Shown here in pieces: positions 10,512 to 63,186 of a stretch of 64,000 nucleotides of DNA. The stretch comes from Candidatus Magasanikiibacteriota bacterium (GTDB taxonomy: Bacteria > Patescibacteriota > Patescibacteriia > Magasanikbacterales > UBA922). Numbering within the stretch: the stretch's first letter is position 1; every line of letters starts with the position of its first letter. The stretch spans positions 99,719-163,718 of the forward strand of contig DMXO01000005.1 in assembly GCA_003482855.1 (NCBI GenBank). The letters are read 5' to 3'. The position numbers were made by a program, and so were the translations under genes. The notes below the pieces were generated by a model that was not told where the DNA came from, ran no database searches, and saw nothing but the letters and a program-made list of their open reading frames with translations.

Positions 10512-10635
10512 GCAGGCGCGGTAGGAAATCTCACTCGGCACTTTGTGCCTCTTGGGGAAACCTTCTGGTTTCCCCAACCTTTCCTCAGCATATGAAACCT
10601 ATCGGTTTCACCCTTCCGCAGTTCGATTCCTCTCT
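10512..10635. repeat. tRNA-linked conserved structured element, copy B
   Basis: A 16-nt copy (gcaggcgcggtaggaa) of the tRNA-Trp 3' end, then atctcactc and a core homologous to copy A. Hairpin 1 carries compensatory changes (GGGGAAACC/GGTTTCCCC vs CGAAAACC/GGTTTTCG). It ends with GTTCGATTCCT, identical to the tRNA-Trp T-loop. Hairpin terminators bracket it on the plus strand. Confidence 0.6.
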
Positions 10636-10696
10636 ATTTGTTAATTTATCTGCTAACAACAAAATAACACCATGTTTGTGTAGTGTTATTTTATCG

Positions 10697-10767
10697 CAGG
10701 CGCGGTAGGAATCGAACCTACGCTAACGGTTTTGGAGACCGTAGTACTACCATTATACGACGCGCCC
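10697..10767 (-). tRNA. tRNA-Trp (CCA anticodon), no encoded 3' CCA
   Basis: Acceptor GGGCGCG/CGCGCCT, anticodon loop CTCCAAA, T-loop TTCGATT, 71 nt. Confidence 0.8.
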
Positions 10768-14832: not shown

Positions 14833-16215
14833 TTGTGTATGCCTTCTCAAAAACAAATACCTAAAAAAGCATATATAGTCACGGTCGATATGGGGTATGG
14901 ACATCAGCGTGCTGTATACCCTCTGCATGATATTGCCGCAGATGTCGAAGGACTCTCTATGAACGGGTATGGAATCATCAATGCTAATAAATATGGAGGT
15001 ATACCAAAGAGTGATCAACGACGATGGGAGGGCGGTAGGTCAATTTATGAGACGATTTCACGCATGAAACATCTACCCATTGTAGGCAATTGGATTTTTG
15101 GCATCATGGATTATGTACAGCGTATTGAACCATTTTATCCTGCTCGTGATCTTTCCAAACCAACTGTTCAAGTGCGTCAGATATATAGCATGATTAGACA
15201 TGGGTGGGGTAAACATTTGATTGATGTGCTCAATAGTCGCGAGCACCTTCCTTTTATTAGTTCATTTTTTACTACCGCTTTTTTTGCAGAAGAACATAAT
15301 TATAAAGGGGAAATTTATTGTATTTGTACTGACACTGATATTAGTCGGGCATGGGTACCTCTTGAGCCAGCTAAGTCGCGTATCAATTACCTTGTCCCTA
15401 ACAGGCGTGTAAAAGAACGTTTAGGTTTGTATGGCATACGTCCTGAAAAAATTTTTGTGACGGGTTTCCCTTTGCCAAAAGAAAATATAGGAGGTTCCAC
15501 GTTAAAAGTTTTAAAGCAATCTTTGGGCCATCGCATTACTCATTTGGATCCTCATGGTATATACCGACATAAATACAAAAACACTATTCATGAGTTTTTG
15601 GGTACACAATTTGATAGTGATGTCTATGACAAAAATCATCCTCTTACTATCACATTTGCAGTCGGTGGGGCAGGTGCTCAACGTGAATTGGGGGCGACTA
15701 TAGCAGAGAGTCTTCATGAACATATTACTAAGGGACATGTACATCTCAATCTCGTGGCCGGCATACGAAATGATGTATATCGATATTATCAAGCAATACT
15801 CAAAGATATGGATTTATCAAACAAAGGCGATGCCCATGTATCCATACTGTTTGCGGAGACCAAATTTGATTACTTCAAGAAATTTAATACTGTTCTCAAT
15901 GAGACTGATGTTTTGTGGACCAAACCAAGCGAACTATCTTTTTATGCTGGGCTCGGGCTTCCTATTATCATGGCTCCTACGATAGGCTCACAAGAAGATT
16001 TCAATAGACAGTGGCTCGCTTCTACAGGGGCAGGTGTATTACAAGAAGATCCAAAATATACCGGAGAGTGGTTGTTTGATTGGCTTGAGTCTGGTTGGCT
16101 TGCACAGGCCGCTATGGAAGGGTTTTTGAATGCACCACGCAATGGCGCGTATCATATTGAAGATGTAGTACTCAAGAATAAAAGAAGCGAGATAGAGGAT
16201 ATGCATTTACTTTAG
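14833..16215 (+). CDS. GT-B glycosyltransferase, MGDG-synthase/UgtP-like (GT28 family)
   Basis: The N-terminal YIVTVDMGYGHQRA parallels GNGHVQVA of diacylglycerol glycosyltransferases. The C-terminal TKPSELSFYAGLGLPIIMAPTIGSQEDFNRQWL..GAG is the GT-B donor-binding pattern. Confidence 0.55.
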   Translation: MCMPSQKQIPKKAYIVTVDMGYGHQRAVYPLHDIAADVEGLSMNGYGIINANKYGGIPKSDQRRWEGGRSIYETISRMKHLPIVGNWIFGIMDYVQRIEPFYPARDLSKPTVQVRQIYSMIRHGWGKHLIDVLNSREHLPFISSFFTTAFFAEEHNYKGEIYCICTDTDISRAWVPLEPAKSRINYLVPNRRVKERLGLYGIRPEKIFVTGFPLPKENIGGSTLKVLKQSLGHRITHLDPHGIYRHKYKNTIHEFLGTQFDSDVYDKNHPLTITFAVGGAGAQRELGATIAESLHEHITKGHVHLNLVAGIRNDVYRYYQAILKDMDLSNKGDAHVSILFAETKFDYFKKFNTVLNETDVLWTKPSELSFYAGLGLPIIMAPTIGSQEDFNRQWLASTGAGVLQEDPKYTGEWLFDWLESGWLAQAAMEGFLNAPRNGAYHIEDVVLKNKRSEIEDMHLL

Positions 16216-16303
16216 TTTGAAAGTTTATAAAGTTCATAAAGTATTGTGTATCACAGTTCTTTATAGACTTTATAGACTTTATGAACTTTATAACTTTATA
16301 GAC
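16216..16303. repeat. intergenic imperfect inverted repeat built from TAAAGTT/CTTTATA-type short tandem units
   Basis: gtttATAAAGTTCATAAAGTattg ... (CTTTATAGA)x2 ACTTTATGAACTTTATaa. It could act as a hairpin terminator or attenuator. Confidence 0.6.
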
Positions 16304-16304
16304 T

Positions 16305-17210
16305 ATGTCGTGGTTTTTTATTGCACTTGTCGGATATTTTTTTCTTGCCCTTACTTTCATACTCGACAAACTTATCCTAACCAAATCTGTAGGTAAACCG
16401 GTTGTGTATACATTTTACTCGACTATTTTTATGTTTGGGGCTTTTTTTGCTTGGCCGTTTGGCGTGGAATTGCTCAATGGGTTTGATTGGATATGGGCTA
16501 TGGTGTCAGGCGTTGCGTTTGGTTTGGGACTCTGGGCTCTCTATACTGCAGTCAAACGTGGTGAAACATCGCATATCAACCCATTCAATGGCGCAATGGT
16601 AAGTATCGCGACATATGCATTATCTGCTTATTTCCTTGGAGAAAGACTAACCTCTTTACAGGTAGGTGGTATAGTAATATTGGTAGGTGCTTCCTTGTTG
16701 TTATCGTTTGAAAAATCGCGCAACCATAATGGATTTCATATGGGATTTGTGTGGGCCGGTGTGTCCGGAGTTTTATTTGCTCTGTCACACGTAAGTGCAA
16801 AGTATTTGTATGATGTATACCCATTTCTTACGGGGTTTGTGTGGACGCGCGCGATGACAGGTCTTGTAGGATTATTGGTATTATTGTTTCCATCCGTACG
16901 CAAGACATTTAGAAAAAAATACGAGAAACCGAAAACAAATGCAAAACGTCATGCAGGCATTATAGTTGTATTGACAAAAATCTTTGGTGTGATTGCTGTT
17001 GTGCTTATACAATATGCATCAGCTATTGGATCAGTTTCTCTGGTTATGGCTATGAGTGGATTGCAGTATGCATGTATGTTTGTAATTATATTGTTATGTA
17101 CCAAGTTTATCCCGCGTGTATTCAAAGAATATATAACCAAGCGTGAACTTGTGGTAGAGTGGTTGGCTATAGTACTCGTGGGTCTTGGATCAATTTTATT
17201 TGTATTATAA
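16305..17210 (+). CDS. EamA/DMT-superfamily transporter
   Basis: A ~10-TM protein with two EamA-like halves (GETSHINPFNG...). Confidence 0.6.
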   Translation: MSWFFIALVGYFFLALTFILDKLILTKSVGKPVVYTFYSTIFMFGAFFAWPFGVELLNGFDWIWAMVSGVAFGLGLWALYTAVKRGETSHINPFNGAMVSIATYALSAYFLGERLTSLQVGGIVILVGASLLLSFEKSRNHNGFHMGFVWAGVSGVLFALSHVSAKYLYDVYPFLTGFVWTRAMTGLVGLLVLLFPSVRKTFRKKYEKPKTNAKRHAGIIVVLTKIFGVIAVVLIQYASAIGSVSLVMAMSGLQYACMFVIILLCTKFIPRVFKEYITKRELVVEWLAIVLVGLGSILFVL

Positions 17211-18325: not shown

Positions 18326-19528
18326 ATGTTTTTCAGAAGATTTAAAAAAACTGACCACATTGTGGAAGATCATCCACTTGTTCATCATCGGGGGATTTTT
18401 AGACGTCAGATATCTCTATTTGAAGCCGTAGCACTCGTCGTAAGCGGAACGATAGGAGCTGGAGTATTGGGTATTCCCTTTGTAGTAGCAAAGGTAGGTA
18501 TCTCTATAGGTATATTATATATAGTTACGCTTGGTCTTCTTATGATGGGATTAAATTTGCTTATTGGAGAAGTTGCGACCTGCACAAAGCAGGAGTTGCA
18601 GATTGTAGGTCTTGCTCGTGTGTATCTTGGCAGATGGGGAGCATGGTTTATGACAGGCCTTATCTATGTTATGGGCGTCGGTGTGCTCACGGTATATATT
18701 GTTGGAGAGGGCACAGCCCTTTCAGCATTGTTTGGTGGCGATTCATTTACGTGGAGTGTTATATTTTTTGCCATTGGGTCTGTATGTGTGTATGCCGGCT
18801 TGCGTTTGATCAAAATAATGGATTTATTTTTAGGGCTTGGTCTTTTGTTGGTCATTATTGTTATTTCTCTTCTGGGAGTTCCTCATATGTCAGTGGCTCA
18901 TGTAGAGTTTAATAACTTGGCATATTTATTGTTTCCTTATGGAGTTATCCTTTTTTCTCTGAGTAGTACAGGCGTTATCCCAGAAGCTCATGCATTGCTC
19001 AAACGTAAAGATGGATTATTTAAAAAAACGATTGTTATTGCTTCGATTATTTGTATTGTTATTTATAGTTTGTTTGCTTTTGTTGTGGTAGGGGTTACTG
19101 GTTTAGAGACTACGGAAATTGCCACAGTTGGTCTTGGTAGTGTGGTTGGAAATACTATATTTGTACTTGGTAACATATTTGCTGTACTTGCCATGGGGAC
19201 AGGATTTCTCATGAGGGGTATTGCTTTGCGGGATTCTCTGACATGGGATTACAAAGTACATCCAGTTACTGCCTCTCTTGTCGTATGTGTTATTCCTTTT
19301 TTAATTTTTATTGCGGGCCTGCGTAGTTTTATAGGACTCATTGATGTCATTGGTGGGGTATTTGTGAGCATTGATTTATTGTGTATGGTACTTATATACT
19401 GGCGTGCTCGCCAGCAAGGAGTCCTGAATAACAAGAAATATCATATACATCACGCATTGCTCTTGGTACCTGTATTGCTTCTTGCGCTTGCCGTTGGGGC
19501 GGTGTATAGTTTGGTGAAGTTATTTTAG
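18326..19528 (+). CDS. amino acid permease (APC/aromatic amino acid permease-like)
   Basis: 11-12 TM helices; FEAVALVVSGTIGAGVLGIPFVVAKVG is typical of amino-acid transporter N-termini. Confidence 0.6.
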   Translation: MFFRRFKKTDHIVEDHPLVHHRGIFRRQISLFEAVALVVSGTIGAGVLGIPFVVAKVGISIGILYIVTLGLLMMGLNLLIGEVATCTKQELQIVGLARVYLGRWGAWFMTGLIYVMGVGVLTVYIVGEGTALSALFGGDSFTWSVIFFAIGSVCVYAGLRLIKIMDLFLGLGLLLVIIVISLLGVPHMSVAHVEFNNLAYLLFPYGVILFSLSSTGVIPEAHALLKRKDGLFKKTIVIASIICIVIYSLFAFVVVGVTGLETTEIATVGLGSVVGNTIFVLGNIFAVLAMGTGFLMRGIALRDSLTWDYKVHPVTASLVVCVIPFLIFIAGLRSFIGLIDVIGGVFVSIDLLCMVLIYWRARQQGVLNNKKYHIHHALLLVPVLLLALAVGAVYSLVKLF

Positions 19529-19568
19529 TTTATAAAGTTGAAAGTTTGTAAAGTTTTAAATTGTTACA

Positions 19569-21566: not shown

Positions 21567-22388
21567 ATGTCCGTTATCCAAGCAATCATTTTAGGAACTA
21601 TCCAAGGACTTACTGAATTTCTTCCTGTGTCATCATCTGGTCATCTTATTTTTTTGCCAAAATTATTTGGGTGGAGTGATCAAGGACTTGCATTTGATAC
21701 AGTGATGCATCTGGGGACATTGTTGGCAGTTGTAGTATATTTCAGGAGAAAATTATACGAGATATCCCTGAGTGTTTTTATTTCGAGTAAAAAGTTGAAA
21801 GTAGAAAGTATAAATGACAGAAAATTATTTTGGTTGCTTATCTTAAGTATTATTCCTGCCGCAATTGTTGGCCTTTTGTTTGATAATTGGATAGAAACGA
21901 ATTTGCGTGCGACATGGATTATCGGAGCAAATTTTATTGTGTGGGGAATCATCTTGTTTTTGGCTGACATGTATAGTAAAAAGTTGAAAGTAGAAAGTAG
22001 AAAGCCATTGGAGAAAGTTAATTGGAAAAATTCATTATGTATTGGTTGCGTACAAGCGTTAGCACTAATTCCGGGGACAAGCAGGTCGGGTATTACCATG
22101 ACCGCGGGATTATTTTCAAAATTGGATAAAAAAAGCGCGGCAGAATTTTCTTTTCTCATGAGTGTCCCAATTATTGCGCTTGCCGGTGGTATGCAGTTGC
22201 TAGAGATGTTGCGAAATGGTTTTGAGCAAACAGGTATGTCTGTGTTAGTTGTTGGGTTTATTGCTTCAACAGTGAGCGGTTTAGTTGCCATCTGGGGATT
22301 GATGAAGATAATACAGAAGTGGAGTTTTGTACCATTTGTCATATACCGTATAATCATTGGTGTACTTATCGTACTGTATCTTGTGTGA
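21567..22388 (+). CDS. uppP: undecaprenyl-diphosphatase
   Basis: EFLPVSSSGHL and GTSRSGITMTAG motifs. It carries two in-frame 28-30 nt heptamer-repeat insertions (SKKLKVESI / SKKLKVESRK). Confidence 0.9.
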   Translation: MSVIQAIILGTIQGLTEFLPVSSSGHLIFLPKLFGWSDQGLAFDTVMHLGTLLAVVVYFRRKLYEISLSVFISSKKLKVESINDRKLFWLLILSIIPAAIVGLLFDNWIETNLRATWIIGANFIVWGIILFLADMYSKKLKVESRKPLEKVNWKNSLCIGCVQALALIPGTSRSGITMTAGLFSKLDKKSAAEFSFLMSVPIIALAGGMQLLEMLRNGFEQTGMSVLVVGFIASTVSGLVAIWGLMKIIQKWSFVPFVIYRIIIGVLIVLYLV

Positions 22389-47497: not shown

Positions 47498-47720
47498 AGT
47501 TGATGGGGATAGTATATCAAAGTAGGGTGTATTTGTACAGTTTTATAACAGATAGAATGTTTGTGCACATTATAGTTGTATATATGTAATAGATGATACA
47601 TTATAATTGATAAGGTTTTTATCATTTATCATTTATTATTTATCTCGACCTTCCTTTTTGACCTTTTTCGATGCGTTGTTTTGTGTTATACTGCATACAA
47701 AGTAATAAATATAATTATGT

Positions 47721-49073: not shown

Positions 49074-49207
49074 TAAAATTATAAATGATGAATGCAAAAT
49101 GATGAGTAAAAATAAAGATTTAAGATCCAAAATGATAAATGATATATGATAAATTTTTATCACTTATCATCTATCTTATTCATTGTTTGTTTCAGTAGTT
49201 TTCTTTT

Positions 49208-54366: not shown

Positions 54367-57003
54367 ATGCAAGAAAAAATTATAATTCGTGGAGCTCGAG
54401 AACATAATTTGAAAAACATCAGTCTCGAACTTCCACGCAACAACATGATTGTTTTTACTGGACTGTCTGGATCAGGCAAGTCTAGTCTTGCGTTTGATAC
54501 CATTTTTGCAGAAGGCCAGCGTAGATATATAGAAAGTCTATCTGCATATGCACGTCAATTTCTTGGAGGCATGCAGAAACCTGACGTGGATGAGATAGAG
54601 GGACTGAGCCCAGCCATCTCTATAGACCAAAAGGCGCATAGTTCAAATCCACGTTCTACTGTTGCTACTATTACTGAGGTATATGATTATTTACGTGTAT
54701 TGTATGCGAGAGTCGGAGAACCACATTGTCCTGTTTGTGGAACAAAAATAGAGAAGATGACAGTTGACCAAATTGAAGAAAGAATAATAGAGAATCTGCT
54801 CGGAAGTAAAAAGTTGAAAATAGAAAGTAAAAAGGGTAATGAAATTATCATTTTGAGCCCAGTGGTGAGAGGTAGAAAAGGCGAATATTACCAGATGTTG
54901 TATGATATGTATAATTCTGGATTTTTGAATGTACGCGTGGATGGAAAGATGAAGTCGTTGAAAGAAAGAATTGTACTATCAAAGAATAATAAGCATACGA
55001 TTGAGATTGTTGTGGATAAAATGGAGTTCAGAGTTCTGAGTTCTGAGTTCAGAGACGAAGACAAACAGCGTTTAGCTGAAGCCGTAGAACGCGCAGTAGA
55101 TTTATCAAATGGATTATGCACTGTTATATATCCTGATAAGGAAGAACATATCTACAGTACACAGTATTCGTGTCCCAAAGATGGTTTTAGCTTTCCAGAG
55201 ATTGAGCCAAGGCTTTTTAGTTTCAATAGTCCTTATGGGTATTGCGATTTTTGCACGGGACTTGGTACCAAAGAATTATTTAGTGAAGAAGTATGTCCCA
55301 AATGTGAAGGCAGACGTCTCAATAATAATGCTCTTTCGGTCAAAATTGCTGACAAAAATATTTGGGAAGCAACGAGTCAGACAATTGGGGAGGCAAAATC
55401 TTTTTTTGAAAATCTAATAGAAATATTGGATAAGAAAAAAATGGAAATAGCAGGGACAGCCCTAAATGAGATACACAATAGATTATCATTTTTACATAAT
55501 GTCGGTCTTCACTATATTACACTCAATCGGAGAGCAGGCACTTTGTCCGGCGGAGAGGCCCAGCGCATTCGTCTCGCATCTCAAGTTGGCCAACAGCTTG
55601 TGGGAGCATTATATGTATTGGATGAACCAACTATTGGATTGCACCAAAAAGACAACGATCAACTTGTCTCCACACTTCGTAATTTATGTGATATAGGAAA
55701 TACTATCATTGTCGTGGAACATGACGAAGATACTATTTTGACTAGTGATTGGGTGGTAGATATTGGGCCAGGAGCAGGAACACATGGTGGGAAGGTGATT
55801 TATTCTGGACCGCTCAACTTGCTACTTGAAAGTAAAAAGGAAAAAGTAAAAAATAAAAAGAATGATTCAATTTTAGGCTGCACCATCTTGGGTAATCCAG
55901 AAAATTCATTAACAGGTAAATATTTACGGGGTGAAGAAAAGATTGAAGTACCTGACACGCGTCGCAAAGTTGATGCTTCAACACCAAAAATTAAAATTAA
56001 AGGCGCGAGTGAACATAACTTAAAGACTATTGACGTCGAGATTCCATTGCGTCGTTTTGTTTGTTTGACGGGGGTGTCTGGGTCTGGCAAGTCTACACTC
56101 ATGCACGATATTTTGTATCGTGCGGTTGCAAATAGAATAAATTATTCTGGCCATGTGCCAGAAGAACAAAAAAGACGTGTTGGTAAACACAAACAAATTT
56201 TGAACACGGAATATATAGACAAGATCATAAAGATAGATCAAAATCCGATTGGCCGTACACCACGAAGTAATCCTGCTACGTATACAGGAACATGGACTCT
56301 CATCCGCGATTTGTTTGCGGCGACTCCCGAAGCGCGTATTCGTGGATACAAATCTGGCCGCTTTAGTTTCAACAGGCCTGGTGGGCGGTGTGAGAATTGT
56401 GAAGGACGCGGGGTATTGGAGATCGAAATGCATTTTTTGCCAAGTGTAGAGATAGTATGTGATGTGTGCAAAGGCCAGCGATTTACCCAAGAGACATTAC
56501 AAGTGCATTACAAAAGCAAAAACATTGTAGATGTACTCAATATGACGATAGAAGAAGCGGAAGATTTTTTTGAAGATATTCCATACATCTATGACAAATT
56601 GAAAGTGTTGAACAGTGTAGGACTAGATTATCTGCGCCTCGGACAATCTGCTACAACACTCTCTGGAGGTGAAGCACAGAGGATTAAACTTTCAAAGGAA
56701 CTCGCAAAGAAGAATACGAGCAAGACATTGTATTTACTTGATGAACCTACGACAGGACTTCATTATGATGATGTGAAAAAGTTGATCAGTGTGTTGCAGG
56801 ATCTTGTGTCAAAAGGGAATACTATTTTGGTTATTGAGCATAATTTGGATGTAATTAAGTCGTGCGATTGGATCATAGATCTTGGCCCTGAAGGTGGAGA
56901 CAAAGGTGGCGAAGTAGTGGCGATCGGCACACCCGAGGATATTGCACGGAAAATTACTACCAGCTATACTGGGAAATATCTAGGTCGTGTATTAAAAAAA
57001 TAA
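54367..57003 (+). CDS. uvrA: excinuclease ABC subunit A
   Basis: Two ABC modules (GLSGSGKSSLAFDT, LSGGEAQRIRLA twice) and zinc fingers. It contains three in-frame heptamer-repeat insertions at about 54805, 55024 and 55831. Confidence 0.95.
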   Translation: MQEKIIIRGAREHNLKNISLELPRNNMIVFTGLSGSGKSSLAFDTIFAEGQRRYIESLSAYARQFLGGMQKPDVDEIEGLSPAISIDQKAHSSNPRSTVATITEVYDYLRVLYARVGEPHCPVCGTKIEKMTVDQIEERIIENLLGSKKLKIESKKGNEIIILSPVVRGRKGEYYQMLYDMYNSGFLNVRVDGKMKSLKERIVLSKNNKHTIEIVVDKMEFRVLSSEFRDEDKQRLAEAVERAVDLSNGLCTVIYPDKEEHIYSTQYSCPKDGFSFPEIEPRLFSFNSPYGYCDFCTGLGTKELFSEEVCPKCEGRRLNNNALSVKIADKNIWEATSQTIGEAKSFFENLIEILDKKKMEIAGTALNEIHNRLSFLHNVGLHYITLNRRAGTLSGGEAQRIRLASQVGQQLVGALYVLDEPTIGLHQKDNDQLVSTLRNLCDIGNTIIVVEHDEDTILTSDWVVDIGPGAGTHGGKVIYSGPLNLLLESKKEKVKNKKNDSILGCTILGNPENSLTGKYLRGEEKIEVPDTRRKVDASTPKIKIKGASEHNLKTIDVEIPLRRFVCLTGVSGSGKSTLMHDILYRAVANRINYSGHVPEEQKRRVGKHKQILNTEYIDKIIKIDQNPIGRTPRSNPATYTGTWTLIRDLFAATPEARIRGYKSGRFSFNRPGGRCENCEGRGVLEIEMHFLPSVEIVCDVCKGQRFTQETLQVHYKSKNIVDVLNMTIEEAEDFFEDIPYIYDKLKVLNSVGLDYLRLGQSATTLSGGEAQRIKLSKELAKKNTSKTLYLLDEPTTGLHYDDVKKLISVLQDLVSKGNTILVIEHNLDVIKSCDWIIDLGPEGGDKGGEVVAIGTPEDIARKITTSYTGKYLGRVLKK

Positions 57004-57659: not shown

Positions 57660-57679
57660 TATTCATCATTTAGCATTTT

Positions 57680-58633
57680 TCATTTATCATTTTGTACCGC
57701 TTCAATCAACATCTGTGCAATTTTCCCATTCCACTGCTTGTATGTTGCTTCGTATGCAAACAATAAGCCTGGGCGAGAGTTTAGTTCGAGAAGTTTGAAA
57801 CCTTCTTTTGTATTCATGAAGTCTGCAGAGTAGAGGAGCGGTCGATATTTGTCTACTTTTGGTTGAATATCGTGGCAAATTATATTTACTACGTCTTTTG
57901 GTATATCTGAAACTTGTACAGTAAAAGAATCACCGCCTTGGGAAACATTTGCCAAGAAGCTTCCTTTTTTGGGCATACGCATGAGGGAGTGAGCTATTTC
58001 CCCATTGATTACCTCGACTCGCAGATCATGATTTCCTTGTACCAGATTGTGGATACCGCACGTTGCATCGAGAAATTCTTGGAGTAAGACATCGTGCCAA
58101 TCATCGTACGTGTGTTCACTCACTTCGCCGGCATTGATAATAAAAATTCCACGTCCTTCAGTGAGATAATTTTTTTTGAGCACAACGCGATCACCATTGC
58201 CAATAGCATATTCCTTCATCTTGCCAATGAATTCTTCATATGAATTGATTAGGTCTGTGCGCGGGGAGATTTCTTCGAATGTCTGAGCTGTGAGATGTTT
58301 ATCAAGAGCAAGCTCGTCAAAATCAGGATGGTTGATCACTTTACAATCATAAATTTTTGGGATTGTATTTTTGTCATCACGATTAAAAATCAAATCTGCC
58401 TTTATTTTATTTTTGTATTCTTTAAGTTCGCCATTATCAAAATACCATCCGTGAGAGAAAACTCCATTCCCCTCGTATGAATTTTTTCCTCGGACAAAGT
58501 AAACGTCGATGGGGTACTTCGTTATGTCAGAGATTACATCCTGGTATCTATCAAAGTATTCACCTTCGTTGAAAGGATAACCCATTGGCTCTGGGTCGGA
58601 GAAGTAAATTGTGATTGTTTTTCTTCTATTCAT
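57680..58633 (-). CDS. ATP-grasp domain protein (RimK/GshB-like)
   Basis: RVVLKKNYLTEGRGIFIINAGE and FKLLELNSRPGLLFAYE are ATP-grasp B/C-domain motifs. The substrate is unknown. Confidence 0.5.
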   Translation of the reverse strand: MNRRKTITIYFSDPEPMGYPFNEGEYFDRYQDVISDITKYPIDVYFVRGKNSYEGNGVFSHGWYFDNGELKEYKNKIKADLIFNRDDKNTIPKIYDCKVINHPDFDELALDKHLTAQTFEEISPRTDLINSYEEFIGKMKEYAIGNGDRVVLKKNYLTEGRGIFIINAGEVSEHTYDDWHDVLLQEFLDATCGIHNLVQGNHDLRVEVINGEIAHSLMRMPKKGSFLANVSQGGDSFTVQVSDIPKDVVNIICHDIQPKVDKYRPLLYSADFMNTKEGFKLLELNSRPGLLFAYEATYKQWNGKIAQMLIEAVQNDK

Positions 58634-58713: not shown

Positions 58714-60003
58714 ATGTTTATATTTGATTCAAAAAAATTTCCAGATAGTCCGGGTATTTATCTATTTTATAATGATAAAAGAGAGCTTATTTATGTTGGA
58801 AAAGCTACGTCTTTGAAAGATAGAGTTGCGTCGTATTTTCGCAACCCCCTCCCAACCTCCCCCTTAAAAATGGGGAGGCGTCCGATTGAGTTGCTTATAA
58901 ATGAAGTATCAGATGTCAAAATAATACAAACTGAATCAGTGTTGGAAGCGATTATTTTGGAAGCTAATACTATTAAGAAATTTCAACCAAAATATAATGT
59001 AGATTTGAAAGATGACAAGTCGTGGAATTATATCGTCATGACTAAAGAAAATTATCCACAAGTAAAAACTGTTCGCCAACATGAAATAGAAAATTCGAAA
59101 TTCGATCCTCGATTTAATCGGGGACGAAATTTGAAATTTAAATTTGGTCCTTATCCAGGGTTAAAAACACGTGAAATGATGAAACTGTTGCAGAGGTTGT
59201 TTTTTATTTCGCACTGTAAGCCTTGCCAGCCTGGTAAGCCTTGTAGGCCTTGTTTGTACTATGCAATGGAACAATGCTTAGGCGTATGTACCGGAGAAAT
59301 TACGTCACAAGAGTATAAAAAGAAAGTTATTCGTCCCTTAGTTATGTTTTTGAGAGGAAACAAAAAAGGCGTTATACGACAACTTGGAAAACAAATGAAA
59401 GAAGAGAGTAAGAAGGAAAATTTTGAAGAAGCTGGTCGTTTGCGAAATCAAATCAGCGCTTTGCAGAGAATACAGGATATAGCATTGTTGAATAAGTCAT
59501 TTACTAGTCAACAAAAATTCGAAATTCGAAATTCGAAATTCGAATTTTCAAGAATAGAAGGTTATGATATTTCAAATTTGGGTGAGGCGGGCAAAGTAGG
59601 ATCCATGGTAGTGTTTGAAAATAGCGAGTCGAACAAATCACAATATAGAAAATTTAAAATCAAAAATGTTCTTGGTCAAAGTGATGTTGGATGTCTTCAT
59701 GAGGTGTTGGAACGCAGATTAAAACATAGTGAGTGGAGAATGCCGAATGTTATTTTGGTAGATGGGGGAGTACCACAGGTCAATAGAACAGTGGAAACTA
59801 TTCGAGTAAATAAATTTAAAATACCAGTCGTTGGCATTGCCAAAGGACCCAAACGTAAGAAGAATGAATTTATTTTAGGGAGCAAAGAAAAAGAATTTGT
59901 GAAGTGGGTAAACAAAAATCAAGAATTGTTGGTTCGTGTGAGGGACGAAGCCCATCGGTTTGCTATCAGCTATCAGAGGAAGTTGCGCAAAATCAAACAC
60001 TAA
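58714..60003 (+). CDS. uvrC: excinuclease ABC subunit C, short form lacking the C-terminal (HhH)2 domain
   Basis: GIY-YIG domain (PGIYLFYNDKRELIYVGKATSLKDR, YNV), UvrBC region, RIEGYDISN, and a C-terminal RDEAHRFAISYQRK. It contains heptamer repeats (aaattcg)x4 and a CCTCCCC/GGGGAGG palindrome insertion. Confidence 0.85.
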   Translation: MFIFDSKKFPDSPGIYLFYNDKRELIYVGKATSLKDRVASYFRNPLPTSPLKMGRRPIELLINEVSDVKIIQTESVLEAIILEANTIKKFQPKYNVDLKDDKSWNYIVMTKENYPQVKTVRQHEIENSKFDPRFNRGRNLKFKFGPYPGLKTREMMKLLQRLFFISHCKPCQPGKPCRPCLYYAMEQCLGVCTGEITSQEYKKKVIRPLVMFLRGNKKGVIRQLGKQMKEESKKENFEEAGRLRNQISALQRIQDIALLNKSFTSQQKFEIRNSKFEFSRIEGYDISNLGEAGKVGSMVVFENSESNKSQYRKFKIKNVLGQSDVGCLHEVLERRLKHSEWRMPNVILVDGGVPQVNRTVETIRVNKFKIPVVGIAKGPKRKKNEFILGSKEKEFVKWVNKNQELLVRVRDEAHRFAISYQRKLRKIKH

Positions 60004-60027
60004 TCTCAACATTAATTTACATCAATA

Positions 60028-60056
60028 AAAAATCGCGTAAATGACGCGGTTTTTTT
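60028..60056 (+). terminator. rho-independent terminator after uvrC
   Basis: AAATCGCGT-aaatg-ACGCGGTTT followed by TTTTT. Confidence 0.75.
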
Positions 60057-60282
60057 ATATTCCACTAAATATTTTATTAAATATGTAATGGAACGGAGGC
60101 GAACGATGGACGTCTACCTCGATGTGTGATGGATCTCCGGTCCATCGTTTCCCTCCATCCCTCCCTTGTGGGAAAAAGAACGTGCGACCCTGCATCGCCT
60201 CATGTCAACCGCCACAGTCGTCGTGGCGATCAGGGTCTTCTTGTCAGGTCACCAGACCGGCTGATCGGGAACTCGGAGTTCC

Positions 60283-60606
60283 CTACGCGACCGGGTCGAT
60301 CCCCTTGGACTCGGGCGCTTCTTCGGCCAGCGGGGCCTCGGGCTCGGGCGCGGCGTCGGCTTCGGTGCCCTCGGCGGTGGGCTCGAGGACCTCGGTCGCG
60401 GTGGGCGCGGGGCAGCCCTGTCCACAGCCGCAGTCGGCTTCTTCGGCCAGCGGGGCCTCGGCTTCGGCGGCCTCGGTGACGCGGAAGTCCACAGGGAGCT
60501 CCCCGTGGTCGCGCAGGAACTGCTCGCAGGCCTTGTTGAGCTCTTCTTCAGGCATGACGCCCATGACGACCTTGGCGAAAATCGTGAGGAACTGAGTCTC
60601 GTTCAT
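60283..60606 (-). CDS. small acidic Cys-containing protein encoded in a high-GC island (107 aa from MNETQFLTIFAKVV...)
   Basis: AAGAGGT sits 3 nt upstream of the ATG. The codon third positions are almost all G/C, unlike every other gene here. It has internal EAPLAEEA direct repeats flanking DCGCGQGC. A GGGAACTC-c-GAGTTCCC hairpin follows the stop. Confidence 0.4.
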   Translation of the reverse strand: MNETQFLTIFAKVVMGVMPEEELNKACEQFLRDHGELPVDFRVTEAAEAEAPLAEEADCGCGQGCPAPTATEVLEPTAEGTEADAAPEPEAPLAEEAPESKGIDPVA

Positions 60607-60820
60607 GATACCTCTTTGGTAGGTGTGGCAGTTGACTACCTTAGAGAAACTACATGGTCTTGCGCGTTTTGTCAATTTTTTAATTTACATTTTGTTTTTT
60701 GAACAGATATGTGGATAACATGGGTTTTCATGGTTGCAAAGAATAGTAAAGTGGGATATAATGGATGTACGTGGGGAAGAGTGGGGAAAATGCTTGTCTC
60801 TCTACTTTCTAAATACAATT

Positions 60821-61252
60821 ATGTTCATCGGAGAATATTCCCACAATTTAGATGAAAAAGGTCGTCTTGCGGTCCCCAAAAAGTTCCGCGCTGATCTTTC
60901 CAAAGGTGCAGTTGTAACAAGGGGACTCGACAACTGTCTTTTTCTTTATACGAAAACAGAATGGAAAAAGCTTGCTGATAAGCTCGCGACGTTGCCATTC
61001 TCACAAGCAAATACACGTGCGTTTGCGCGTCTCATGCTCGCAGGAGCTATGGATGTCTTGGTAGATAAACAAGGTAGAATCATGGTCCCTGATTATCTAC
61101 GCAGTTTTGCTGGTCTCAAAAAAGGAGTTGTCGTGGCAGGTCTATACAACCGTCTCGAACTTTGGGATCAGGAAAAGTGGGAAGAATACAAGACAAAGAC
61201 TGAGAAAGAGAGTAATACGATTGCAGAGCAGATGTTTGAACTCGGTGTTTAA
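60821..61252 (+). CDS. mraZ: transcriptional regulator MraZ
   Basis: MFIGEYSHNLDEKGRLAVPKKFR, the canonical MraZ start. Two repeated half-domains. The track ORF begins upstream at 60734. Confidence 0.85.
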   Translation: MFIGEYSHNLDEKGRLAVPKKFRADLSKGAVVTRGLDNCLFLYTKTEWKKLADKLATLPFSQANTRAFARLMLAGAMDVLVDKQGRIMVPDYLRSFAGLKKGVVVAGLYNRLELWDQEKWEEYKTKTEKESNTIAEQMFELGV

Positions 61253-61265
61253 TTCCTTAAAAGAA

Positions 61266-61346
61266 TTATCATGTATCATTTATCATGTATCATGTATTGG
61301 TTCACTTGGTAGCAAATAAATGATATATGATAAATGTACATGATAT
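61266..61346. repeat. intergenic inverted repeat made of (ATCATKT)n heptamer units
   Basis: atcatgt atcattt atcatgt atcatgt ... aaatgatatatgataaatgtacatgatat, between mraZ and rsmH. Confidence 0.55.
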
Positions 61347-62314
61347 TTATGAAACACGTGCCAGTGCTGTTAAATGAAGTCATTGAAGAACTTAATCTTA
61401 TCTCTGGCATGAATGTCATTGATGGTACTTTGGGTGATGCAGGACATGCAGAAGAAATTTTGAAAGTGACAGCTCCAGATGGCAAGTTGCTTGGTATAGA
61501 TGCTGACGCAGAAGCAATCTTGCGCGCAAAGAAATATCTGTATGATTTTGGAGATAGGGTATTGTTTGCACGAAATAATTTTGAACACATACAGCAAATA
61601 GTGAAAGAACAATCATTTGAACATGTGTCGGGGATATTGATGGATTTTGGCTGGTCAAGTCCTCAGTTTGAAGAGAGGGGAAGAGGATTTAGTTTCTTCA
61701 AACGTGATGAGCCTTTGGATATGCGCTATGACACATATCTCAAGTGTCCACATGAAGCAGACAACCCTCCACTGAGCGTCGATAATAGACCATTGTATGG
61801 TAGATGCACTGCAGCAGAGTTGGTCAATATGAAGTCGCAAACAGAATTGTCATACATATTTGATACGTATGGTGAAGAGAAATTGAGCATAGACATAGCA
61901 CGCGCTATAGTGGAGAAGAGAGTTGACTATGTGCTCGAGACGGTGGGTGATCTCGTAGATGTGATTCTCGATGTATATCGCAAGAAGCTCAAGACAGACA
62001 AAGAAATACCTTGGGTGGGAGGCAATCATCCTGCGACCAAAGTCTTTCAAGCATTACGTATTGCAGTGAATGATGAACTGGGTGTCATAGAGCGTGTATT
62101 GCCACAGGCGATAGACATATTGGAGAAGCATGGCAGGCTTGCTGTGATCACGTTTCACTCTATTGAGGATAGAATCGTGAAGCATTATTTCAAATCACAA
62201 CATAAGAAAACAATTAATCTTATACATAAAAAACCTATTGTTGCGTCTGAACAGGAGGTACAAGAAAACCCTCGATCCAGATCTGCAAAATTACGGGTTG
62301 TTGAAAAATTATGA
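61334..62314 (+). CDS. rsmH: 16S rRNA (cytosine1402-N4)-methyltransferase
   Basis: HVPVLLNEVIEEL, DGTLGDAGHA, and the SAM-binding fold; full-length protein. The true start is possibly at 61349. Confidence 0.9.
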   Translation: MYMIFMKHVPVLLNEVIEELNLISGMNVIDGTLGDAGHAEEILKVTAPDGKLLGIDADAEAILRAKKYLYDFGDRVLFARNNFEHIQQIVKEQSFEHVSGILMDFGWSSPQFEERGRGFSFFKRDEPLDMRYDTYLKCPHEADNPPLSVDNRPLYGRCTAAELVNMKSQTELSYIFDTYGEEKLSIDIARAIVEKRVDYVLETVGDLVDVILDVYRKKLKTDKEIPWVGGNHPATKVFQALRIAVNDELGVIERVLPQAIDILEKHGRLAVITFHSIEDRIVKHYFKSQHKKTINLIHKKPIVASEQEVQENPRSRSAKLRVVEKL

Positions 62315-62706: not shown

Positions 62707-62720
62707 TTTTTATGGTATAC

Positions 62721-62818
62721 TAGTCAAGTAGAAAGTAGAAAGTAGAAATATTATTGAAATGAGCTAAGCGGTTTGAATGACTTTATACTTTATACTTTAT
62801 ACTTTTAACTTTCTAGTC
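62721..62818. repeat. intergenic inverted repeat: ACTAGTC(AAGTAGA)3 ... (CTTTATA)3..TTTCTAGTC
   Basis: The arms are near reverse-complementary heptamer arrays (AGTAGAA vs TTTATAC, one mismatch per unit) around a ~35-nt loop. Confidence 0.6.
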
Positions 62819-62823
62819 GTCGT

Positions 62824-63186
62824 ATGTGGATCCTTGTTGCACAACGTATATTGCTTGAGTTTGTTGTAGATATTATTTATTTTCCTATTTGGTGGTTTAC
62901 TGCTGGTGCACGTCATGCACTATTGTTTTGTGTTGGGCTTGTACAGGAAGCGAATGCAATGATGGCTCCCGGACTCTGGCTCAAGAATATATTTGTTCCT
63001 ATGTTTGGCCAATGGGATTGGCAGGGACGGATCATGAGTTTTTTCATGCGTCTTGCCAATGTTATTATACGTAGTATTGGTCTCACCATATGGGTTGGTG
63101 TAGTCATTGTATTGTTTTTGCTATGGATATTATTTCCTACGTTTGTTCTATATATGTTACTTACGTCATTTTTATCTTTTGGATAA
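62824..63186 (+). CDS. hypothetical 3-TM membrane protein
   Basis: Intact ORF with hydrophobic helices. Confidence 0.35.
   Translation: MWILVAQRILLEFVVDIIYFPIWWFTAGARHALLFCVGLVQEANAMMAPGLWLKNIFVPMFGQWDWQGRIMSFFMRLANVIIRSIGLTIWVGVVIVLFLLWILFPTFVLYMLLTSFLSFG

Follow-up and report, generated by a model that had tools for sequence, protein, structure and literature searches.

The genes uvrA, uvrC and uppP in the 64-kb stretch of DNA analysed here (the window; G+C content 38%) contain short in-frame tandem arrays with a repeat unit of 7 nt, and related arrays lie between the genes of the same stretch, some of them paired with inverted partners. These arrays probably belong to dispersed heptanucleotide tandem-repeat families, of the kind described elsewhere as long simple sequence repeats (LSSR) or short tandemly repeated repetitive sequences (STRR), which selection has filtered into protein loops; on this reading they are fixed features rather than switches. 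To judge from the nearest relatives of UvrA and UppP, which are metagenome-assembled genomes labelled Candidatus Magasanikbacteria or Parcubacteria, the host is a Magasanikbacteria-like member of the candidate phyla radiation (CPR). Exact-protein look-ups matched the same strain only, including a groundwater metagenome contig (SRR2177986; JGI 3300009031), and no relative exceeded 81% protein identity for UvrA in a scan of genome contigs or 65% for UvrC in a scan of metagenomes.

Array coordinates were obtained with Tandem Repeats Finder and by direct reading of the sequence (Table 1). The comparison set consisted of 80 loci around UvrA relatives (genomes), 80 loci around UvrC relatives (metagenomes) and the window, 2.32 Mb in total, and labels such as L006 and L172 denote the loci of relatives used for comparison. 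Arrays in this set were counted by period if they had at least 2.8 copies.

Heptanucleotide arrays in uvrA, uvrC and uppP

An earlier note on this DNA had described three period-7 arrays in uvrA, two near-identical arrays in uppP, each encoding SKKLKVES, and arrays in uvrC at 59515 and 59091-59105. All of these were recovered, and uvrC was found to hold a further array at 59126-59146. At the main sites the arrays comprise 4.1-4.6 copies and span 29-32 nt each. The array that the note had placed in ppsA around position 1450 is not a heptamer array; it is (AAAGAC) x2.8, with a period of 6 (1448-1464), stays in frame and falls outside this family.

Table 1. Coding arrays, intergenic arrays and array-bearing or related genes in the window.
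Feature	Position	Strand	Unit or sequence	Peptide, context or basis
uvrA site 1	54804-54834	+	AGTAAAA-AGTTGAA-AATAGAA-AGTAAAA-AG; 4.4 copies, 75% matches	SKKLKIESKK
uvrA site 2	55024-55054	+	(GAGTTCW) x4.4, 91% matches	EFRVLSSEFR
uvrA site 3	55829-55860	+	(AAAGTAA)-type x4.6, 84% matches	SKKEKVKNKK
uvrC site 1	59084-59146	+	(AAATTCG) x2.1 at 59091-59105 and (GAAATTT) x3.1 at 59126-59146	ENSKFD...NLKFKF
uvrC site 2	59515-59544	+	(AAATTCG) x4.3, perfect, 100% matches	KFEIRNSKFE
uppP loop 1	21786-21814	+	AGTAAAAAGTTGAAAGTAGAAAGTATAAA	SKKLKVESIN
uppP loop 2	21975-22004	+	AGTAAAAAGTTGAAAGTAGAAAGTAGAAAG	SKKLKVESRK
Hairpin	16213-16305		(AAAGTTYAT) and complement, period 9	fills the gap between two same-strand genes
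AAAGTT-type array	19527-19560	+	period 8-9	intergenic; no stable fold
Array	47590-47644		(TTTATCA) x3.9	promoter-proximal; pairs with an upstream imperfect complement; TATAAT-like box just upstream
Array with inverted partner	49130-49175		(AAATGAT) x3.6	small hairpin after a beta-CASP RNase gene
Array	57661-57692		(ATTTATC) x4.6	between convergent genes, overlapping the 3' end of a RimK-like gene; no fold
Hairpin	61266-61346		(TATCATG) x4.4 and complement x4.4	between mraZ and rsmH
Paired arrays	62726-62815		(AAGTAGA) x3.3 and (ACTTTAT) x3.7-4.7	arms complementary in part; a TGGTATACT box lies just upstream
ppsA	108-3119			NCBIfam equivalog model above cut-off
uppP	21567-22388			NCBIfam equivalog model above cut-off
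uvrA	54367-57003			NCBIfam equivalog model above cut-off
uvrC, short	58714-60003			NCBIfam equivalog model above cut-off

In UvrA the arrays start at residues 147, 220 and 489, in surface loops of the UvrB-binding region and in the inter-module linker, and they correspond to 11, 7 and 21 additional residues, respectively, relative to Geobacillus UvrA (2R6F). The UvrC arrays start at residues 126 and 268, the first in the linker after the N-terminal domain and the second in the one that immediately precedes the RNase H-like domain. In UppP, where the starts are at residues 74 and 137, the two loops differ from those of the E. coli protein (5OON) by +2/-1 and +3/-1 residues, and are thus of near-equal length with no net insertion. 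The proposal that each array adds a loop relative to E. coli homologs consequently applies to UvrA, as measured against 2R6F, but not to UppP, where sequence of equal length has been replaced. Alignments of relatives for all three proteins, together with solved structures, place every array-bearing coding site in a loop or linker of variable length.

The two uppP arrays have one identical 24-mer in common, AGTAAAAAGTTGAAAGTAGAAAGT, to which uvrA site 1 is identical at 23 of 24 positions, and identical or near-identical 24-29-mers with the variant units in the same order are present at these three loci. Such resemblance is a more general property of arrays within a genome, since pairs of arrays matching at 18 or more of 21 nt made up 9-15% of those from the same genome and 1.9% of those between genomes (P ~7e-7). 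A trend toward nearby donor arrays (< 2 kb) was not significant (P = 0.08 and 0.25) and is not claimed. Internal pseudo-symmetry of UppP was considered as the source of its two arrays and rejected, as these lie 63 residues apart and not half a protein apart.

At orthologous sites, close relatives often have unrelated units or no array. The loop at UvrA site 1 varies in length across all relatives aligned and carries arrays of CACATAA in L006, ACAATTA in L012 and TGTCGAA in L039. The site 2 array is common to the window and L006, most relatives being without it, while the site 3 array lies within a clade-specific insert of 21 residues that holds GAAACCG in L006 and AAATCAG in L020. At UvrC site 2 the units include ATCAGKG (L006), AAATTTC (L085) and GGAATGA (L100 and L101), and L030 and L092 have CAACGAT/TCGTTGA hairpins there; hairpin versions inside genes were found only in L030, L092, L107 and L121. 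Within a clade of approximately 88-90% nucleotide identity the cassettes differ at both UvrC sites and the flanks are conserved, the alternatives being a 9-nt CAGCAGANN array, a GGAATGA array, a 24-nt palindrome and an array hairpin. The resulting differences in UvrC length are all multiples of 3 (e.g., 18 nt), and in L089 the GGAATGA array takes the place of the 9-nt array at equal length.

Other sites have kept their arrays. The uppP loop 2 array is retained in L171 and L172, and in L172 its DNA is identical at 31 of 33 nt though the proteins are only ~65% identical. At loop 1, L172 has an array of the AAAGTAR family that is read in a different register from that of the window (VKSRKYKVER vs. 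SKKLKVESIN), which indicates that the common element is DNA rather than peptide.

Some relatives have G+C-rich palindromic inserts at the same loops, or no insert. In-frame inserts of this type were seen in the UvrA or UvrC loops of L016, L030, L059, L100 and L008/L021, with 'LPQDDK'-type peptides in L008 and L021, and they appear to constitute a second class of repeats in CPR proteins. The uvrA gene of L059 has an in-frame TAG stop adjoining its site 1 insert (~6229-6269), which could reflect a pseudogene, a sequencing error or recoding; the split uvrA of L167 is only apparent, being due to a scaffold gap of Ns, with no frameshift.

Several further observations concern the proteins themselves. 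Around residues 303-311 of UvrA (878 aa) the alignment to 2R6F skips from chain residue 313 to 417, and UvrA here and in relatives therefore seems to be without an insertion domain of ~100 residues. UvrC has 429 aa and stops at the end of the RNase H-like domain, as do all aligned relatives, so the C-terminal (HhH)2 domain is missing. In the same gene, an in-frame 9-nt repeat at 59215-59253, TGTAAGCCT x4.3, encodes the Cys-rich CKPCQPGKPCRPC motif of UvrC, in a region where L092, L100 and L101 have variable inserts. The ppsA open reading frame (ORF) encodes 1003 aa, of which phosphoenolpyruvate synthase models span residues 1-763 only, leaving a C-terminal extension of ~240 residues.

Period-7 excess and intergenic arrays

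The window holds nine period-7 arrays, where 30 dinucleotide-preserving shuffles gave 0.1 +/- 0.4, and a lag scan of the window found no arrays at periods 8 or 10-15. In the 2.32 Mb, where some loci are duplicates or close relatives and the counts are not fully independent, there were 19, 31, 181, 77, 81 and 11 arrays of periods 5, 6, 7, 8, 9 and 10, respectively. The period-7 arrays had a median length of 28 nt (typically 20-36 nt, few > 40 nt) and were commonest in the loci closest to the window. By density they are about tenfold commoner between genes than within them, with 3.34 per 10 kb of intergenic DNA compared with 0.40 in uvrB, 0.52 in uvrA, 1.96 in uvrC and 0.32 in other coding sequence, figures that depend on crude gene calls (longest ORFs); despite this preference, 96 of 164 lie inside genes in absolute numbers. 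These 96 outnumber the arrays of periods 6 (25), 9 (43) and 12 (12) within genes, which is the reverse of the usual rule, as a summary of earlier work gives it, that coding repeats have units in multiples of three (Mrazek, 2007, summarised in PMC4679880).

The units are diverse, with 102 canonical units among the 181 arrays and no motif common to all, and the window, which covers 64 kb of the genome, by itself holds at least three families (AAAGTAR, TTTATCA and AAATTCG/GAGTTCW), the arrays at 47590-47644 and 57661-57692 falling into one of them. Taken together, the dominance of period 7 in 2.3 Mb, the genome-specific families and the recurrence of arrays, with differing units, at the same loops support the suggestion of a repeat-generating process peculiar to this lineage.

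An inverted partner within 150 nt accompanies 26-39% of intergenic arrays, vs. 1-6% in the control, and 4-14% of coding arrays; within the window, each coding array is a lone arm of ~30 nt that has no partner close by. Three intergenic inverted repeats had been reported as built from 7-mer units. All three exist, and two fold well, at 16213-16305 (-31.1 kcal/mol, z = -5.1 vs. shuffled) and at 61266-61346 (-33.5 kcal/mol, z = -5.9 vs. shuffled), but the first of these has a period of 9, and the third, at 62726-62815, has a weak fold (z = -1.0 for 62715-62825). By direct reading, the hairpin loops are unrelated to each other. The hairpins were also considered as intrinsic terminators, and this was rejected on direct reading, given that they have no downstream T-runs, fill whole intergenic gaps and are not canonical terminators. 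A scan of the window at Rfam gathering thresholds returned four tRNAs only and no match at the arrays.

Extended -10-like boxes occur a few bases upstream of arrays, namely TGGTATACT at 62715-62730 and CATTATAAT at 47600-47612, and with such boxes just upstream some of the intergenic arrays would fall in 5' leaders. In L088 and L091, which are 99.75% identical, the single indel in 12 kb is one of 21 nt, or three units of an (AATTAAC)n array that is intergenic, has ~11 units (13917-13995 in L088) and lies directly behind a TGnTATAAT box. L006 has an intergenic AATGATA array ~5.5 kb upstream of uvrA, an offset comparable to that of the array at 49130-49175, although homology of position is only putative.

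Two other repeat-bearing regions of the window were recorded. A direct repeat of 106 nt (5189-5294 and 10524-10629, 77% identical) has each copy adjoining a tRNA gene (tRNA-Asp at 5345-5419 and tRNA-Trp at 10696-10767), and a 38-nt inverted repeat (5287-5365) overlaps the first copy. A local G+C-rich patch around 60090-60600 (46% in 60001-62000 vs. 38% overall) contains a 31-nt direct repeat at 60317 and 60437 (94% identical), a 22-nt inverted repeat at 60090/60140 and a small minus-strand gene called in public annotations.

Origin and persistence of the arrays

If the arrays are dispersed heptamer families, they may arise and change by replication slippage and template switching. The over-representation of heptamers has been linked to polymerase slippage (Mrazek, 2007, as summarised in PMC4679880 and PMC4692102), and the cause proposed in the literature on heptamer repeats is slippage, promoted by the length of the DNA segment that the polymerase holds. 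Occasional block copying within a genome might then carry an array to another locus, as the 24-mer present twice in uppP and at 23/24 in uvrA site 1 suggests. Coding arrays would persist only where the protein tolerates insertions, that is, in the UvrA loops and linker, the two UvrC inter-domain linkers and the two UppP loops, and only if the version present preserves the frame and is free of stop codons. At these permissive sites, arrays appear to be replaced by other arrays or by hairpins, with only changes in multiples of 3 surviving. Since 7 and 3 have no common factor, successive units of an in-frame array fall in all three phases, and the encoded peptide has a period of 7 residues (SKKLKVE, KFEIRNS). 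In-frame stops would occur in a perfect (AGTAAAA)n or (AAAGTAG)n, and direct reading shows the coding copies of that family to be imperfect; that the stop-containing family is imperfect in genes and the stop-free AAATTCG perfect fits avoidance of stops.

Several points weigh against this interpretation. Stepwise slippage to four units passes through frameshifted intermediates, so block events, by a putative mechanism, must be assumed. Not all arrays turn over fast, given that those of uppP loop 2 and UvrA site 1 are kept across species with 65-80% protein identity. Furthermore, in six orthologous array pairs, which partly share a genome and are not fully independent, 42 of 49 codons for identical residues were the same, vs. 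27.1 expected from amino-acid-specific backgrounds (P ~8e-7), and neutral junk would not give such conservation at synonymous sites. The comparison was pairwise; a MAFFT alignment of the window and L030 offset the arrays. This conservation could come from homogenisation of units read in three phases or from selection at the nucleotide level. Regarding the former, each base of the unit occupies codon positions 1, 2 and 3 in successive units, and if the units are kept alike there is no truly synonymous site, which provides an explanation that needs no nucleotide-level function. The crude gene calls behind the densities and the partial dependence of the array counts also belong on this side of the balance.

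An alternative that we consider possible, though unlikely, is that the arrays are miniature mobile elements resembling Rickettsia palindromic elements, repetitive extragenic palindromic (REP) sequences or REPINs, moved by a trans-acting enzyme and landing in frame in permissive loops. Movement would account for the 24-29-mers that have the same order of variant units at three loci, and a similar picture is given by L020, whose UvrA has one composite element of ~100 nt in two loops (3808-3940 and 4680-4790) that encodes 'KSEIRN...YTLPVTHYxLP' twice and consists, in order, of (AAATCAG)n, (AAATTMA)n, an AT-rich spacer and (TTACNCA)n. Likewise, L016 has a 'STSPRGRG' insert in both UvrA and UvrC, full array hairpins are found within the UvrC of L030, L092 and L121, and the array families are genome-specific. 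The window, however, has no transposase, RAYT-type gene or reverse transcriptase among the annotated genes of its 64 kb, the part of the genome examined, and the genes known to adjoin the window are housekeeping genes; neither terminal repeats nor target duplications are present, and no consensus emerges from the flanks of the arrays. The diversity of the units and the unrelated loops of the intergenic hairpins also speak against a mobile family, as does the fact that the arrays of UppP and of L089 UvrC replace sequence of equal length, with no insertion.

Somewhat less probable still is that the arrays are functional cis-elements kept at the nucleotide level, such as periodic protein-binding sites on DNA or mRNA, or targets of an antisense RNA transcribed from the complementary intergenic arms, with the peptides as a by-product. 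The conserved synonymous sites are as this would predict, as are the arrays at uppP loop 1, which in the window and in L172 are alike as DNA and read in different registers, the presence of the coding unit families in non-coding hairpins as well, and the position of several intergenic arrays directly behind -10-like boxes. In Beggiatoaceae, heptamer repeats upstream of start codons have been proposed as regulator binding sites (PMC4679880), which lends the idea a precedent. On the other hand, the frequent lack of any related unit at orthologous sites of close relatives, the absence of a motif common across arrays and the absence of an Rfam family match are difficult to combine with a conserved element, the synonymous signal has another possible cause in three-phase reading with homogenisation, and the codon test involved few pairs, some from one genome. 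HutP-like (UAG-N4)n arrays and a dnaX-type slippery A AAA AAG were dropped as candidates, as most units have no such motif.

A bolder version, to which we would give little credence, treats the UvrA, UvrC and UppP loops as cassette sites that a putative template-directed mechanism overwrites in frame with heptamer arrays or hairpins taken from other parts of the genome, the arrays being kept by nucleotide-level selection as cis sites on DNA or mRNA. Were this true, the 24-mer that uppP and uvrA share would, together with the complementary arms between genes, belong to a network for regulation or targeting and would not be junk.

The earlier note had raised the possibility of a contingency (mutator) mechanism. 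In the form considered here, slippage by one unit would reversibly switch uvrA, uvrC or uppP off and produce a heritable subpopulation that is repair-deficient or a mutator. The premise is correct, in that 7 is not divisible by 3 and adding or removing a single unit leads to a premature stop within 0-18 codons in each of the proteins. Moreover, the uvrC array at 59515 is perfect, the 21-nt intergenic indel of L088/L091 illustrates that heptamer copy number can differ between near-identical strains, and a real heptanucleotide coding switch exists in neuO, which has 3-53 repeats, most commonly 20, and is OFF in 65.6% of genomes (PMC13001214). We nevertheless regard a switch as very improbable, because its hallmarks are missing. 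The arrays have only ~4 units, all except that at 59515 are 75-91% regular, and they lie in the middle of housekeeping genes, where a contingency locus would be expected near the promoter or 5' end of a gene for an accessory function, a surface structure or restriction-modification. The variation in repeat number that a switch would bring was not seen among assembled contigs of this strain, the arrays being identical in six others, which derive from four sequencing runs, one JGI sample and one further ENA assembly. In relatives, no frameshift or OFF allele was found at ~54 arrays in ~140 uvrA and ~140 uvrC genes, compared with the majority of genomes that are OFF for neuO, and where coding sites differ in length, they do so by a multiple of 3 and never by 7. 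The uppP gene is normally essential, and its OFF state would accordingly be lethal rather than adaptive.

Finally, the idea that these are ordinary K/E/S-rich low-complexity linkers, in which A-rich codons happen to produce a period of 7 nt, draws on the very A-rich arrays at 54804-54834 and 55829-55860 (75-84% matches, in K-rich loops typical of linkers), but it is already contradicted by the shuffles, the 24-mers repeated at three loci and the in-gene period counts, and has further against it that GAGTTCW and AAATTCG are not low-complexity and that the same units occur in non-coding hairpins.

Significance and comparison with known systems

Heptanucleotide repeats have long been noted in scattered bacteria, and the present case extends them to the candidate phyla radiation. 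What is new relative to known cases is that in this clade arrays with 7-nt units are commoner than those with 6- or 9-nt units even within genes. The same loops of conserved repair and cell-wall enzymes carry arrays repeatedly, with changing units. With hundreds of metagenome-assembled genomes and orthologous sites that carry different cassettes, the clade offers a tractable comparative system for the birth, copying and filtering of repeats. It also cautions against taking a short insertion in a CPR protein for an adaptive feature, since it may instead consist of repeat DNA. There is no evidence here for a switchable mutator.

Among elements that enter protein genes, Rickettsia palindromic elements are reportedly (Ogata et al. 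in 2000) inserted in frame as palindromes of 100-150 bp without tandem substructure. They resemble the arrays in that in-frame repeat DNA is tolerated at surface positions of conserved proteins and the family also occurs in non-coding DNA, but the window's coding copies measure ~30 nt, have a period of 7 nt and represent one arm each, and hairpins occur in genes only in some relatives. REP sequences, said by Bertels and Rainey in 2011 to form REPIN doublets associated with RAYT transposases, likewise share with the arrays the occurrence of ~30-nt repeats as inverted doublets (here the long intergenic hairpins) and as singlets; REP units are reportedly palindromic and not tandem arrays, whereas the arrays here are tandem and the annotated genes of the window include no RAYT-type gene.

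The neuO repeat of E. coli K1 is similar in being a coding 7-nt repeat that is read in three phases and gives a full-length product only at certain repeat numbers. It differs in that the gene is accessory and phage-borne and has its repeats, perfect and 3-53 in number, at the 5' end, with variation between and within strains (PMC13001214), in contrast to the ~4 often imperfect units found here in mid-gene, invariant among contigs and always in frame.

In marine Beggiatoaceae and some Cyanobacteria and Bacteroidetes, TAACTGA occurs as direct repeats of 2-6 copies (PMC4679880). As with the arrays described here, these heptamer repeats are mostly intergenic and near gene starts, with a few in ORFs as peptide repeats of 7 residues. 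TAACTGA is, however, a single dominant heptamer with stops in all frames in one orientation, and its ORF copies are at protein ends, while the arrays here have many units and their coding copies lie in internal loops of conserved proteins.

Dispersed heptanucleotide repeats are the closest known kind; besides TAACTGA they comprise the STRR of heterocystous cyanobacteria (Calothrix/Nostoc), GGGAATC of Xanthomonas and GGGGAYT of Nostoc. The last two include inverted pairs and change rapidly between related species, in Xanthomonas in both length and sequence (PMC4692102). The arrays of the window and its relatives share with LSSR/STRR the over-representation of a 7-nt unit relative to other periods, the short dispersed arrays, the genome-specific families, the highest density between genes, the pairing of some arrays with an inverted copy that allows a stem-loop to form, and the retention of position between related genomes with changed length and sequence. 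They differ in that the units are AT-rich and diverse, compared with one or a few G-rich motifs in LSSR/STRR; that the host is a small-genome CPR bacterium; that more than half of the arrays are in genes, in frame and including conserved housekeeping genes; and that orthologous sites show both replacement and conservation of arrays.

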